Source of the DNA: an uncultured virus (IMG/VR IMGVR_UViG_3300030102_004953) | Lineage: Duplodnaviria > Heunggongvirae > Uroviricota > Caudoviricetes | Length of the DNA: 20,000 bases | Reading direction: 5' to 3' (one strand) | Virus record (IMG/VR): IMGVR_UViG_3300030102_004953 | Shown: positions 2,503 to 12,362 of the stretch, in pieces | How positions within the stretch are numbered: the stretch's first letter is position 1 | Layout: each line of letters begins with the position of its first letter | Notes under the pieces: model-generated | The model's database searches: none | What the model was told of the DNA's origin: nothing | What the model saw: the letters and a program-made list of their open reading frames with translations, nothing else | Program-made: the position numbers and the translations under genes

Positions 2503-2599
2503 CAAAAACTCCCTTAAATTAATAACTTAGGTATTAGTTTCTCTTTTTATTTTCTTAACTTTTTAAAGTAAATAGTATACAAGTTAAGTTTTATGTTTG

Positions 2600-2671
2600 T
2601 AGCCCGTAGGGGAATCGAACCCCTGTTGCAGGAATGAAAATCCTGAGTCCTAACCACTAGACGAACGGGCC
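2600..2671 (-). tRNA. tRNA-Glu (TTC), CCA not encoded
   Basis: GGCCCGT/ACGGGCT acceptor, CAGGA-TTTTCAT-TCCTG anticodon arm, GGTTCGATTCC T-arm. Confidence 0.96.
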
Positions 2672-2676
2672 AGTAG

Positions 2677-3090
2677 TGGAGCTGGTGGGAATCGAACCCA
2701 CGTCCAAACGCTTTCTCGATGAAGTCATTTACAGCTTAGTTAGTTTCAAATCGGTAGTAACTAACAACCCACCATATCCCCATTTACTCAGATAGGTTTA
2801 ACTGGTAGGGTTTATTGTCTCCCTACATTGACGATCGTGTCTAACTTGTTTTATGACCGAGTGTTAAACAAACTCAGTATCTTATGCAGCGTGTGCGTAA
2901 GATGGTTGAGAAGTACGAGCTGGTTCAATAAATGTATCAAACATACGCTCTGAATTAGCTAGATGCCAATCCACTTTCAACCCTTGTAGCGATTTATCGC
3001 CATTTAGGTTTTGTGAGTCTTATTAAAGAGTCTACTCATACTCTGCTGCACTTCATTGTCAAATAACGCCTGTCGAAACCAGTCAGCCCC
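2677..3090 (-). ncRNA. ssrA: tmRNA (one-piece, 414 nt)
   Basis: 5' GGGGCTGACTGGTTTCGACAGG, 3' GGACGTGGGTTCGATTCCCACCAGCTCCA, G3-U70 alanine determinant, pk1 (AGAGT/ACTCT plus TGAGT/ACTCA), tag frame ending YAHAA-stop. Confidence 0.95.
2882..3001 (-). other. tmRNA tag reading frame: (A)GDKSLQGLKVDWHLANSERMFDTFIEPARTSQPSYAHAA*
   Basis: GGC resume codon 12 nt after pk1, preceded by TAAAT; open 39 codons to TAA. Confidence 0.8.
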
Positions 3091-3094
3091 ATAG

Positions 3095-3167
3095 AGCCAG
3101 AGATAGGATTCGAACCTACGACCTAGTGATTACAAATCACTTGCTCTACCAACTGAGCTACTCTGGC
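3095..3167 (-). tRNA. tRNA-Thr (TGT), CCA not encoded
   Basis: GCCAGAG/CTCTGGC acceptor, AGTGA-TTTGTAA-TCACT anticodon arm, GGTTCGAATCC. Confidence 0.96.
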
Positions 3168-3245
3168 ATAAAGTAGTGGGGAAGTCCTCACGCCCTATTG
3201 TTTGATATTATCGCTCGCCAGTTTGTGGTGTTTATCCACTACTTG

Positions 3246-3318
3246 TGGAGCTGACAGGAGTCGAACCTGCGACCTCCTCCGTGCAAGGGAGGCGCTCTCC
3301 CAACTGAGCTACAGCCCC
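3246..3318 (-). tRNA. tRNA-Ala (TGC), CCA not encoded
   Basis: GGGGCTG/CAGCTCC acceptor with G3-U70, CCTCC-CTTGCAC-GGAGG anticodon arm. Confidence 0.96.
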
Positions 3319-10262: not shown

Positions 10263-10307
10263 AAAAAAGGTGGTTAGCCTTTCTACGTTCACGGTTAAAT
10301 GACCACC
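10263..10307 (-). terminator. putative intrinsic terminator after ORF 10311-10493
   Basis: GGTGGT/ACCACC stem followed by TTTTTT on the minus strand; loop is large. Confidence 0.45.
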
Positions 10308-10310
10308 CCC

Positions 10311-10493
10311 CTATGCTCTGCCTATCGGTATCCCCTTATCCTGCCAGTGTCCTATGTTCTCCCACATAGCCATCAGGCTCAGTTGTAGCGTGCTGTCGTC
10401 CATCTCCGTGTAGAAGCTACCATCCATCATATCCGCCAGTAGGTTGCGTATTATCTCCCTATCCACGTTATCTATTATATTGTCTAGTTGCAT
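10311..10493 (-). CDS. hypothetical protein (60 aa)
   Basis: ORF track. Confidence 0.65.
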   Translation of the reverse strand: MQLDNIIDNVDREIIRNLLADMMDGSFYTEMDDSTLQLSLMAMWENIGHWQDKGIPIGRA

Positions 10494-10531
10494 TTGAGCT
10501 CTTTCTTTTTTATATGCCGCTTAAAATCTTG

Positions 10532-10603
10532 AGCGGTGTGTTGGTACTGCCCCAACCCCTCTTCTATGGAATAGAAGCGTATCTCTCTTGATACTTCCAC
10601 CGC
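10532..10603 (-). tRNA. non-canonical tRNA-Gly (TCC)
   Basis: GCGGTGG-AA-GTAT(CAAGAGAG)ATAC-G-CTTCT(ATTCCAT)AGAAG-AGGG-GTTGG(GGCAGTA)CCAAC-ACACCGC-T; full cloverleaf, U73, but no TTC and no D-loop GG. Confidence 0.8.
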
Positions 10604-10609
10604 ATATGT

Positions 10610-10645
10610 AAATAGTATTAGATTATTCAGAATACTATTTTTTTT
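10610..10645. terminator. AT-rich 10-bp inverted repeat, terminator-like
   Basis: AAATAGTATT/AATACTATTT with a T-run on the plus strand. Confidence 0.4.
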
Positions 10646-10647
10646 AT

Positions 10648-10693
10648 CCGAGCCGCTATGATTCGAACATAGCAGTTATATCTCCACTACTCG
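10648..10693 (-). ncRNA. tRNA-like 12-bp minihelix with T-loop
   Basis: CGAG-(TAGTGGAGATATAA)-CTGCTATG-TTCGAAT-CATAGCGG-CTCG-G. Confidence 0.55.
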
Positions 10694-10694
10694 T

Positions 10695-10893
10695 TAAGCG
10701 TGGTGTGGCAATACAACTTCACCAGCAGCTCACCCCATCGTGTTTAGCTGGATTGTTCTTGAACGACACCACGCTCACATTAGGATTTTTCAAAAATCTT
10801 TGGGTGGTTGGTATTCTTACGATTCACTTAGCCCCGAGGGACCACCCTTATTACGATTACCCATTAGAAGTTGTCTGCTTCCACCACGTGGGT
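10695..10893 (-). ncRNA. multi-hairpin structured RNA of unknown class
   Basis: stems TGAGCGTGGTGT/ACACCACGCTTA, GGGTGGT/ACCACCC, GATTTT/AAAATC, ACCCA/TGGGT plus GGAAG/CTTCT; G-U pairs favour the minus strand. Confidence 0.55.
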
Positions 10894-10903
10894 TTCTCTA
10901 TAG

Positions 10904-11024
10904 AGACAAGATAGGGACTCGAACCCTACAGCTCCTCAAACAAAACTCAAGTAATCAGCTCTTTGTTTCTCAGAACACCACTAGACTCAGAGGGTGATTA
11001 GCCCTCATCAACGCCCGTCTTGCC
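10904..11024 (-). ncRNA. 121-nt tRNA mimic with K-turn and complementary loops
   Basis: GGCAAGA/TCTTGTC acceptor, TAGGG-TTCGAGT-CCCTA T-arm, TGATGA/CTGA K-turn, loops CTAATCA and CTGATTA. Confidence 0.75.
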
Positions 11025-11053
11025 TTTCGAATTCTTCAAATAACTTACCCCCT

Positions 11054-11093
11054 AATATACGCATAAAGCCCCATACGTGTCAAGTCTTTTTTT
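11054..11093 (-). promoter_or_regulatory. repeated sigma70-like promoter, copy 4 (drives the ncRNA cluster)
   Basis: A-tract-GAC-TTGACA-N18-TATATT. Confidence 0.8.
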
Positions 11094-11144
11094 GCTTTAA
11101 CCTAAACTTTTTAGATGCCGCCATCGCACGAGCCTAAAATAGTT

Positions 11145-11184
11145 AAGAAAGTGCTTGACTTGTATTGGGTTTATTTCGTAAATT
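11145..11184 (+). promoter_or_regulatory. same promoter class, the only plus-strand copy seen
   Basis: AAGAAAGTGC-TTGACT-TGTAT..(N18)-TAAATT. Confidence 0.65.
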
Positions 11185-11234
11185 ACGGGTTAAGCCTTAA
11201 ACGCAACGGCTATAGCGCGTGGTATACAAGTTGG

Positions 11235-11273
11235 AATATAATACATATAACCTATACAAGTCAAGTCTTTTTT
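11235..11273 (-). promoter_or_regulatory. repeated sigma70-like promoter, copy 5
   Basis: A-tract-GAC-TTGACT-N18-TATATT. Confidence 0.75.
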
Positions 11274-12059
11274 AGCGGCTCGAATCCCGCGCCATATAGG
11301 TTAGCCGCTCTAAACTATTTAGCTAGGAATACCAACCCAACCCATATGTCAAAATGTCATATATATCTCAGGGCTTCGCGCATAGGGATACGCTATACTT
11401 GCGCAAGCGTGTAACACACTTAATTATTCAGAGTTTTATTCATAGTTATATCAATCTGAGGATATTGAGGTATATGAGAGCGCTGAGATATTGTGTTGTA
11501 TCAAACTCCATATATCAGATTAAGTGGGTAGAAGTGGGTTAATGTGGAATACGTATGGATAGTTACGACAAACCCGATTGAGTGTTTTTCGATGCCAGGA
11601 GTACCCATATTACCTTCAAAAAGGGTGCTTCCTGAGGGTGAAATATATCTCATTAGGGTTGTATTGATTAGCACTCAATCATATATTTGATGAGGTATCT
11701 CACGCAGATGACGAATACTATTGCTAGGAATTCATCGGGGTAGGTGGTTATGAAATATTTGAGGCTTTCGATTAAGCCTTTGATGATGTGTGTATAGTCG
11801 ATAATGTATTATATCGATAAGTGTCGTAGCGTGATAATAAATAGTGTTGGGAATGCTGAAAATGGGATTTGGTGAGAACTTAGATTGTGAGAGTGAACTA
11901 TGGGCTAGAGGATACGGCGTTAGCCGTGTCCATTAGTGTATCTCTTATAAATCTTCTATGTCTCTTTGGAATTTTTGTATTTGCACTAAGCCCCATAGTT
12001 GTATTCCTACTATTAATAACATAATACCTACTAAGGAGCCTAGTACATTTAGTAACATT

Positions 12060-12362
12060 TTAATTAGCAACCGGCTTGTTGGCAGCTTCGTCCTCTTTTG
12101 GCTTACCGCCTGATATAACCACAATCTCTTCCAACTGTTGGTGTTCGTAGCAATAAAAGTAGTGCGTGTTAGTCATACGTAACTTATATAGGTCCTGAAC
12201 AAATACGTGTAACCTACCTCGTTCGTCCTTATAGTTGTAGAGTTTAGACTCTACCTTACTCCTATAATCTATATTCATACCGCTGAATGCTTGTATCGGT
12301 TGAGGAAATGATGAGCAACTGATTGATAGTAATAATGTGAGTGCGATGATAACGTTTTTCAT
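12060..12362 (-). CDS. putative lipoprotein
   Basis: MKN plus hydrophobic core plus SISC lipobox-like; AAGGA RBS. Confidence 0.65.
   Translation of the reverse strand: MKNVIIALTLLLSISCSSFPQPIQAFSGMNIDYRSKVESKLYNYKDERGRLHVFVQDLYKLRMTNTHYFYCYEHQQLEEIVVISGGKPKEDEAANKPVAN

Follow-up and report, generated by a model that had tools for sequence, protein, structure and literature searches.

We analysed a 20,000-nt stretch of DNA (the window; IMG/VR record IMGVR_UViG_3300030102_004953), which by its sequence looks like part of an uncultured marine T4-like phage, and focused on a 121-nt element at positions 10904-11024 of its minus strand, present there in a single copy. Every gene in the window lies on the minus strand, including those for 2-oxoglutarate (2OG)-Fe(II) oxygenases, glycosyltransferases and an HNH endonuclease, and the closest cultured relatives of the encoded proteins belong to Flavobacterium and Prochlorococcus myoviruses (about 50% protein identity). 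An initial annotation had described the element as a structured RNA that it did not recognise, with a tRNA-like acceptor and T arm and with two unusual arms in place of the D and anticodon arms; its parse of the minus strand agrees exactly with the window letters. We find that the element belongs to a conserved family, of which marine viromes and metagenomes contain at least 76 distinct sequences, and that it represents a real phage-borne, tRNA-shaped RNA family under selection that is not filed in Rfam.

The first relative of the element, reached via a neighbouring 82-aa protein, carries an 88%-identical copy. Further copies were obtained by pattern scans of IMG/VR and by one scan of JGI/ENA metagenome contigs, the latter yielding 111 stretches. 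From 93 distinct extended sequences pooled, 13 were removed for not having 5/5 T-stem and at least 5/7 closing-stem pairs; the 80 retained sequences gave 76 distinct ones of 120-135 nt after trimming. The resulting alignment, A2, has 136 columns, and all counts below refer to its 76 sequences unless another sample is named. Its mean column identity is 77%, so it does not represent one recent clone. Three length classes are present, of about 121, 123 and 134-135 nt, and the element of locus L119 is identical to that of the window. The metagenome pattern fixed the letters GTTGA, GAGTCTA, TGG and GGGTTC while leaving the loops, stem identities and arm 2 free, and the inclusion filter favoured paired T and closing stems. 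A separate sample, anchored on the T arm only, comprised 20 stretches (15 distinct, 14 of full length). Some contigs carry two family copies about 150-350 nt apart (L069:909-1028, minus strand; L062:717-840, minus strand; L127:1207-1274, plus strand); in L069 and L062 the second copy has diverged strongly (81 and 70 bits by covariance model) yet retains both loop sequences. An exact 25-mer scan of IMG/VR gave no match, and a search for relatives via a 234-aa oxygenase found none. Among 185,579 species genomes of cellular organisms 11 stretches matched the pattern, none of which fits model R1 at E ≤ 1, and no host or prophage copy was found there.

The element is built as follows (all coordinates are on the minus strand).

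11019-11024: 5′ strand of the closing (acceptor-like) stem, 6 bp, partner 10905-10910; 6/6 pairs changed on both sides, 96.3% of cells paired.
11017-11018: unpaired connector of 2 bases, an invariant A followed by A or C (columns 7-8: AA 57/76, AC 19/76); column 7 is opposite C in 73/76.
10983-11016: arm 1 overall, a hairpin with a kink turn (K-turn) by consensus.
11013-11016/10983-10986: C helix of arm 1; variation limited to G.U/A-U and C-G/U.G.
11010-11012: GUU bulge of arm 1, in agreement with the K-turn consensus.
11007-11009/10987-10989: G.A, A.G and U.U of arm 1, also in agreement with the K-turn consensus.
11003-11006/10990-10993: distal stem of arm 1; 4/4 pairs changed on both sides.
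10995-11001: loop 1, CUAAUCA; core UAAUCA in 76/76.
10977-10982: junction AGUGGU (A-N-U-G-G-N in the family); A, U, G and G are invariant, but UGG and A were fixed by the search pattern.
10931-10976: arm 2 overall, the second long arm.
10972-10976/10931-10935: outer stem of arm 2; 3/5 pairs changed on both sides.
10970-10971 (GA) opposite 10936-10941 (GUUU-GA): second, K-turn-like motif, in arm 2.
10967-10969/10942-10944: middle 3-bp helix of arm 2; 2/3 pairs changed on both sides.
10962-10966/10945-10948: internal loop of arm 2.
10959-10961/10949-10951: inner 3-bp stem of arm 2; 2/3 pairs changed on both sides.
10952-10958: loop 2, CUGAUUA; UGAU invariant.
10911-10929: T arm, a 6-bp stem and the 7-nt loop UUCGAGU (UUCRANU in the family); 100% of cells paired, 2 pairs changed on both sides, GGGTTC fixed by the pattern.
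10905-10910: 3′ strand of the closing stem, followed at 10904 by a variable discriminator base; CCA is not encoded.

The T arm with its loop UUCGAGU, the AGUGG between the two arms, and the loops CTAATCA and CTGATTA with their complementary cores TAATCA and TGATTA had all been pointed out in the initial annotation and are indeed found in the window.

In the refined family structure 97.0% of cells are paired and 21 of the 41 pairs changed on both sides. Its covariation score of 0.376 exceeds that of shuffles (0.162; 0/500 reach the observed value) and of slid partners (at most 0.132); the structure drawn initially gives 87.7% of cells paired overall. One helix of that earlier structure, the 7-bp AAACAAA/TTTGTTT stem of arm 2, does not survive comparison: only 57% of its cells are paired, the nearest kin of the window (L007 and L114) have uncompensated A.G and A.A mismatches in it, and a 3-bp helix (columns 58-60/85-87) covaries instead. 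One pair of this replacement helix changed on both sides in 47/76 sequences, and its innermost pair occurs as G-C 29, U-A 17, U.G 14, A-U 9 and C-G 7. The acceptor of 7 bp and T arm of 5 bp proposed earlier are present as stems but are split 6+6: position 7/66, which is A-U only in the window's close kin, is A.C in 73/76, whereas an additional T-stem pair, G111-C129, is paired in 76/76 (G-C 73, G.U 3). A blind RNAalifold prediction returned the 6-bp closing and T stems, both 4-bp helices of arm 1 (C helix and distal stem), the 5-bp outer stem and 3-bp middle helix of arm 2, and all but one of the three pairs under loop 2; the missing one (columns 66/78), paired in 60/76, is our own addition. 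Length variants differ by whole structural modules: in the 134-nt class, for example, an additional hairpin RYU-GAAG-ARY with 2 covarying pairs is inserted in the GUU(U)-GA/GA loop of arm 2. Covariation supports the closing stem, the T arm, the K-turn arm and the second long arm, and the alignment shows their overall arrangement to be a four-way junction, with two arms in the places of the D and anticodon arms.

Since this region of the phage contains tRNA genes and an HNH endonuclease gene, one could picture the element as debris: the remains of a tRNA gene that has decayed and acquired insertions, or a scar left by recombination in a tRNA island. Compensatory changes in every helix across 76 variants already contradict such an origin, as do the invariant loops, the element's own promoter (see below) and length variation by whole modules, and we regard it as extremely improbable. 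A coding reading of the overlapping plus-strand open reading frame (ORF) 10740-10997 was also rejected, because family members carry 1-, 2- and 11-14-nt indels within the conserved region.

The two 6-bp stems at the base of the molecule add up to 12 bp, equal to the 7+5 bp of a tRNA, and the likeness to tRNA (RF00005) extends from this coaxial acceptor/T-arm module to the T-loop, to a GG able to reach it and to the lack of an encoded CCA. The T-loop follows the tRNA consensus UUCRANU throughout (UUCAAAU 37, UUCGAGU 17, UUCGAAU 15, UUCGAUU 6, UUCAACU 1; GGGUUC was fixed by the pattern). The GG of the junction is retained in the divergent copies, whose junctions read AAGAGG or AGUGG, and might dock on the T-loop as the equivalent of G18-G19, giving a tRNA elbow. 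Other features set the element apart: it receives no ARAGORN call and no RF00005 match up to E=10 in 10300-11400, its base is split 6+6, a K-turn hairpin stands for the D loop, and the 'anticodon' arm is long and probably kinked, with only 3 bp under its loop. Neither a D arm nor an arm with a 5-bp anticodon stem and 7-nt loop was found, arm 1 being a K-turn hairpin. A Cys-like identity had been suggested from the GGC start and U73. It is unsupported, because both the first pair of the closing stem (G.U 25, C-G 23, G-C 19, U-A 5, A-U 4) and the discriminator (A 30, U 27, C 11, G 8) vary, so that GGC and U73 are features of this copy. The absence of an encoded CCA is shared with the tRNA-Ala, tRNA-Thr, tRNA-Glu and tmRNA (transfer-messenger RNA) genes of the window.

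Arm 1 matches the K-turn consensus. In the window GGGC is followed by the GUU bulge, by G.A, A.G and U.U, and by the distal stem, with a return strand ending ...CUGA-GUCU. Across the family the pair adjoining the bulge is C-G or U.G, then come GUU, G.A and A.G, and the 3b.3n position is free to vary (G.U 35, A-U 4, G-C 3, other non-standard combinations such as U.U and C.U 34). GUU and GA/GA occur in 76/76 with their letters fixed by the pattern; in samples that placed no constraint on the 5′ strand, or on the arm as a whole, tandem GA.AG was retained in 10/10 sequences and, for the T-arm-anchored sample, in 10/14. One divergent second copy has a plain 3-nt bulge, and in both divergent copies the K-turn GA is lost or altered. 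The K-turn had initially been assigned to the box C/D type; its consensus (GUU bulge, GA/GA) is present, but the type does not hold, UGAUGA being specific to the window's variant. Across the family GA is followed by G in 38, U in 22, C in 11 and A in 5 sequences, and box D reads UGA in 68 and CGA in 8; the window does have UUGAUGA and CUGA, but C′/D′ boxes and a guide region were not seen and there is no Rfam match. Arm 2 can be read as containing a second, probable K-turn-like kink in reverse orientation relative to arm 1, judging by its match to the consensus: Y-G closes the 3-bp helix, followed by GUU(U) and a GA on the 3′ strand opposite a 5′-strand GA (GA 63, UA 12, AA 1). The internal loop of arm 2 is GAA/AGUA in 31/76 members, which we take to be the S-turn consensus, and is not clear in the window's subtype.

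The loops are the most constrained part of the RNA, beyond what mutual pairing alone demands. UAAUCA of loop 1 is found in 76/76 sequences and in 14/14 full-length T-arm-anchored ones; UGAU of loop 2 is found in 76/76 and is followed by UA in 61, AA in 14 and UG in 1, while the T-arm-anchored sample contains UGAUUA, UGAUAA, UGAUUG and, once, UGAUUC. None of these loop letters was part of the search patterns of two IMG/VR scans, of the metagenome scan or of the T-arm-anchored sample. The complementarity of the loops noted in the initial annotation is conserved, but covariation between them over the 76 sequences is nil. The core that always remains complementary is AUCA:UGAU, 4 bp. It can be read as the isoleucine codon AUC plus a purine facing U33-G34-A35-U36, an observation that brings no evidence of function; CUGAUAA, which is loop 2 in 12/76 members, is presumably the anticodon loop of E. 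coli tRNA-Ile(GAU).

Two likenesses to these loops were considered and rejected. Leader hairpin strands of the 123/134-nt subtypes (GUUGAUU/AAUCAAC) resemble the loops; we take this as coincidence, because the hairpin covaries away from the loop letters, to GUUGGUU/AACCAAC and CUGGUC/GACCGG. Loop 1 together with its stem resembles the 3′ end of 16S rRNA (AUCACCUCCU in L002), which was rejected because the stem strand covaries (AUCAUCUUCU in many members).

The surroundings of the element, and other RNA features of the window, are the following.

11054-11083, minus strand: sigma-70-type promoter TTGACA-18-TATATT with 11/12 consensus matches; the -10 hexamer ends 29 nt before the element.
10494-12060, minus strand: variable island of about 1.6 kb with scarcely any credible ORF and several hairpins.
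10648-10693, minus strand: mini tRNA-like module of about 46 nt, with a 5-bp stem CGAGU/GGCUCG, the linker GUGGAGAUAUAAC and a 6-bp T arm at 10655-10673.
10311-10493, minus strand: small ORF of 60 aa, with relatives of 56-60 aa at 28-43% identity.
2674-3090, minus strand: phage-encoded tmRNA (Rfam, 107.8 bits) between tRNA-Thr and tRNA-Glu, few bases separating the genes.
3170-3245, minus strand: tRNA-Ala/tRNA-Thr spacer, 78 nt, with a hairpin closed by AGUAGUGG/CCACUACU.

A promoter is a common companion of the family: of 74 distinct upstream regions, 49 have a TTGAC-N17-19-TAnnnT site no more than 150 nt from the element, and leader lengths cluster at 19 and about 47 nt. Within the window's island the promoter is repeated (AAAAAGACTTGAC...TATATT at 11083-11054 and 11264-11235), and related contigs have the same type of island, with promoter-driven small RNA modules shuffled between phages. 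No terminator was found directly 3′ of the element. What follows it varies by locus and may be an immediate promoter, the mini tRNA-like module of about 46 nt, other conserved hairpins, an ORF or a second family copy. Most of the stretch is contained in 15 DNA runs; of four RNA or RNA-like runs, one metatranscriptome gave a 211-nt contig over 10831-11041 at a depth of 2.7, the other contigs being fragments or relatives. We treat this contig as a weak hint of expression, since assembled contigs reveal neither transcript ends nor strand nor abundance, and the library may include carried-over DNA. The best explanation is that the element is a separately transcribed non-coding RNA gene with its own promoter. 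Were it instead a cis-acting leader or processing signal for downstream RNA and genes, rather than a free small RNA, one could point to the missing terminator and to the contig, which extends 73 nt beyond the 3′ end of the element; yet downstream content differs among loci while the element stays constant, and we consider a cis-acting function very unlikely.

The mini tRNA-like module recurs across loci as a 5-6-bp stem, the linker GUGGAGAUAUAA and a T arm; the motif AGUAGUGG-N-GAU-R-UAA with a covarying T arm has 11 distinct forms in related loci and often comes directly after the main element. It could serve as a processing (punctuation) signal. On the other side of the element, T-arm-bearing modules end a few bases 5′ of it in L054, L090, L091, L152, L069, L100 and L134 (e.g. 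...GGUGCCGGUGGGGUUGAAAUCCCCAGC..., ...UGGGGUUCGAUUCCCCACCACUC...), a layout that resembles a polycistronic tRNA operon. At least 47 of 98 loci encode a relative of the small ORF 10311-10493 on the strand of the element and no more than 1.2 kb downstream; the ORF has no Pfam or PHROG family.

Farther away, ARAGORN called tRNA-Glu, tRNA-Thr and tRNA-Ala in the window, within 2599-3318, and at gathering score Rfam 15 reported these three tRNAs and one tmRNA. Blastn of window 10300-11500 and of the tmRNA against cultured phages gave no match. The interior of the tRNA-Ala/tRNA-Thr spacer (GGAUAAACACCACAAAC...GUGAGGACUUCCCC) was found again in locus L001, where it closely precedes a mini tRNA-like module, and the spacer hairpin is probably a further conserved small RNA module.

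As an overall interpretation we favour a non-decoding tRNA mimic matured by tRNA enzymes; taken as a whole, we hold this statement to be as apt to prove wrong as right, our confidence in the fold being much higher and that in the role low, a guess. Maturation by tRNA-processing enzymes is suggested by the variable neighbours together with the absence of a terminator and of CCA: RNase P, 3′ trimming enzymes and the CCA-adding enzyme would free the RNA from its leader and read-through tail, as for the phage's CCA-less tRNAs. With both arms kinked in opposite orientations, the tips of the arms would be brought together, the invariant AUCA of loop 1 would pair with the invariant UGAU of loop 2, and the mimic might engage a host or phage factor that reads tRNA shape or the anticodon. 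One such role would be that of a decoy for a tRNA-directed defence nuclease.

A number of observations speak against this interpretation. Folded as a single sequence, the element does no better than shuffles (z = -0.5), and for the window sequence the family consensus fold has an energy of -21.8 kcal/mol, the initially drawn fold -28.9 kcal/mol and the minimum-energy fold, which is unlike both, -35.5 kcal/mol. The invariance of GUUGA, GA-GUCU-A, UGG and GGGUUC in A2 arises by construction, because these letters were fixed by the pattern, and 4/14 sequences of the T-arm-anchored sample have a non-standard tandem (GA/UA or a single G.A) in the K-turn. Arm 2 has two internal loops and only 3 bp below its 7-8-nt loop, and it far exceeds a tRNA anticodon arm in length. 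Of the close phage relatives found via the 82-aa protein only L002 carries the element, which is absent from L001 and L003-L006 and therefore dispensable. None of the six proposed kissing pairs covaries: four are constant, one shifts a single time from U-A to U.G, and A27-U74 is A.A in 14/76 without compensation; in addition, the outer pair is U.C in one T-arm-anchored variant. By nearest-neighbour rules the isolated 6-bp loop duplex is weak, at -2.9 kcal/mol, and its UGAUAA form has -1.6 kcal/mol. Loops this invariant are no less expected if a protein or a second RNA recognises them than if they kiss each other.

The loop-loop kiss is accordingly plausible but unproven, and the same data can be read in another way, with the loops not paired to each other, each making its own sequence-specific contact with a protein or RNA, and the acceptor/T module serving as a handle for processing and stability. 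Loops that are invariant and do not covary, even in divergent copies, are what such contacts would predict, and so is a kissing pair broken without compensation in 14/76. The island is rich in modules ending in T-arm/acceptor minihelices (e.g. 10648-10693), which suggests a general punctuation role for that module, and the 56-60-aa ORF found downstream on the same strand in many loci may be counted on this side too; it has, however, no Pfam or PHROG family, and any link to the RNA is hypothetical. Separate contacts would also leave two facts hard to account for: six-base complementarity in a given pair of 7-nt loops has a chance of about 1 in 1000 by our estimate, and two opposed kink motifs make little sense if the tips stay apart. 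Nor is the loop 1 motif YTAATCA enriched in the window as a trans-target signal would be (7 matches versus 12.9 expected). We see separate contacts as a possible but clearly less probable explanation.

Complementary loops on two separate arms could also pair between molecules and so form dimers or closed rings, by analogy with phi29 pRNA, and the strong promoters suggest a high copy number. Phi29 pRNA, a non-tRNA-like RNA of small podoviruses, multimerises via complementary 4-nt loops, and the large phage-associated RNAs ROOL and GOLLD multimerise through loop contacts. The two loops of the element could link copies in the manner of pRNA, to which no similarity was found; yet an A/U-rich contact of 4-6 bp is weak between molecules, and the opposed kinks suit an intramolecular pincer at least equally. 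Multimers of this kind seem unlikely to us.

Within the interpretation as a tRNA mimic, a bolder proposal is that the RNA is a self-contained imitation of a tRNA bound to its codon: a matured, CCA-tailed body whose two kinked arms would hold a preformed Ile codon-anticodon minihelix, AUCA:UGAU. We think this doubtful, somewhat more so than multimers. A codon-bound mimic could dock in the ribosomal decoding site or, by offering an anticodon loop that is already 'decoded', block or titrate an anticodon-directed defence nuclease or tRNA-modifying enzyme during infection. In eukaryotes, pseudoknot I of the dicistrovirus intergenic region internal ribosome entry site docks in the ribosomal decoding site.

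The description of the element as an unrecognised structured RNA was checked with ARAGORN and Rfam 15, neither of which made a call for it, and it stands. At gathering score Rfam 15 has no match to the element, and up to E=10 it gave in 10300-11400 only two weak chance matches, both on the plus strand; one of these, Plastid-psbI-rps4 (15.2 bits, E=5.2), overlaps 10904-10958 on the strand opposite to the element. No description of the family turned up in full-text searches of the literature. A catalogue of 8,495 candidate structured RNAs from IMG/VR was published in 2023 (PMC10690425); six IMG/VR contigs that carry the family are unlisted in those of its tables that were searched, and its alignments, outside that search, could list the family as an unnamed candidate.

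Nearest in kind are the stable T4 RNAs rnaC (species 1) and rnaD (species 2), which are likewise small RNAs of the tRNA region of a T4-type phage with no function assigned. Like the element, rnaC ends in a T arm and an acceptor-like stem. They are not homologous to it: model R1, run with filters off over the T4 tRNA region, reaches at best 10.1 bits on rnaC (E=0.06) and covers the T-arm half only. They lie in a tRNA operon, in contrast to the element with its own promoter, and the T4 sequence showed neither a K-turn arm nor complementary loops. Other tRNA-like structures (TLS) include the tRNA-like domain of tmRNA, plant-virus TLS, mascRNA and bacterial YrlA.

Two classes of riboswitch invite comparison. 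In lysine riboswitches a K-turn helps a loop-loop contact, and in the element, too, a K-turn in one arm could fold its loop onto the loop of the neighbouring arm; it differs from them in having no Rfam match up to E=10, no evident ligand pocket or expression platform, and a tRNA-like four-way junction. Stem I of the T-box has a K-turn at the base of the arm and presents a specifier codon plus a purine to the tRNA anticodon. The pair of T-box Stem I and tRNA has a counterpart in the K-turn-based arm, which would show AUC-A opposite the anticodon-type loop U-GAU, and in the S-turn-like loop of 31/76 members. Unlike in the T-box, a single molecule contains both partners, the S-turn-like loop belongs to the 'anticodon' arm rather than the 'codon' arm, and there is no distal platform, terminator/antiterminator, downstream aminoacyl-tRNA synthetase gene or Rfam match.

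Non-decoding tRNA-like RNAs are known from a few systems, and most of their functions were hard-won. At about 121-135 nt the family described here is compact, and it occurs widely in marine viromes. Its consensus matches several recurrent building blocks of RNA: the T-loop, the K-turn (clear in one arm, probable in the other), in some members an S-turn-like loop, and possibly a kissing contact. Its covariance model and alignment provide a handle for probing, structure work and metatranscriptome mapping. The island of promoter-driven RNA modules in large marine phages points to a small-RNA biology that has no cultured model. If the built-in codon-anticodon pair is real, it would be a new viral way to imitate substrates of translation; and if the RNA diverts tRNA-directed defences by acting as a decoy, it would amount to counter-defence by RNA alone.

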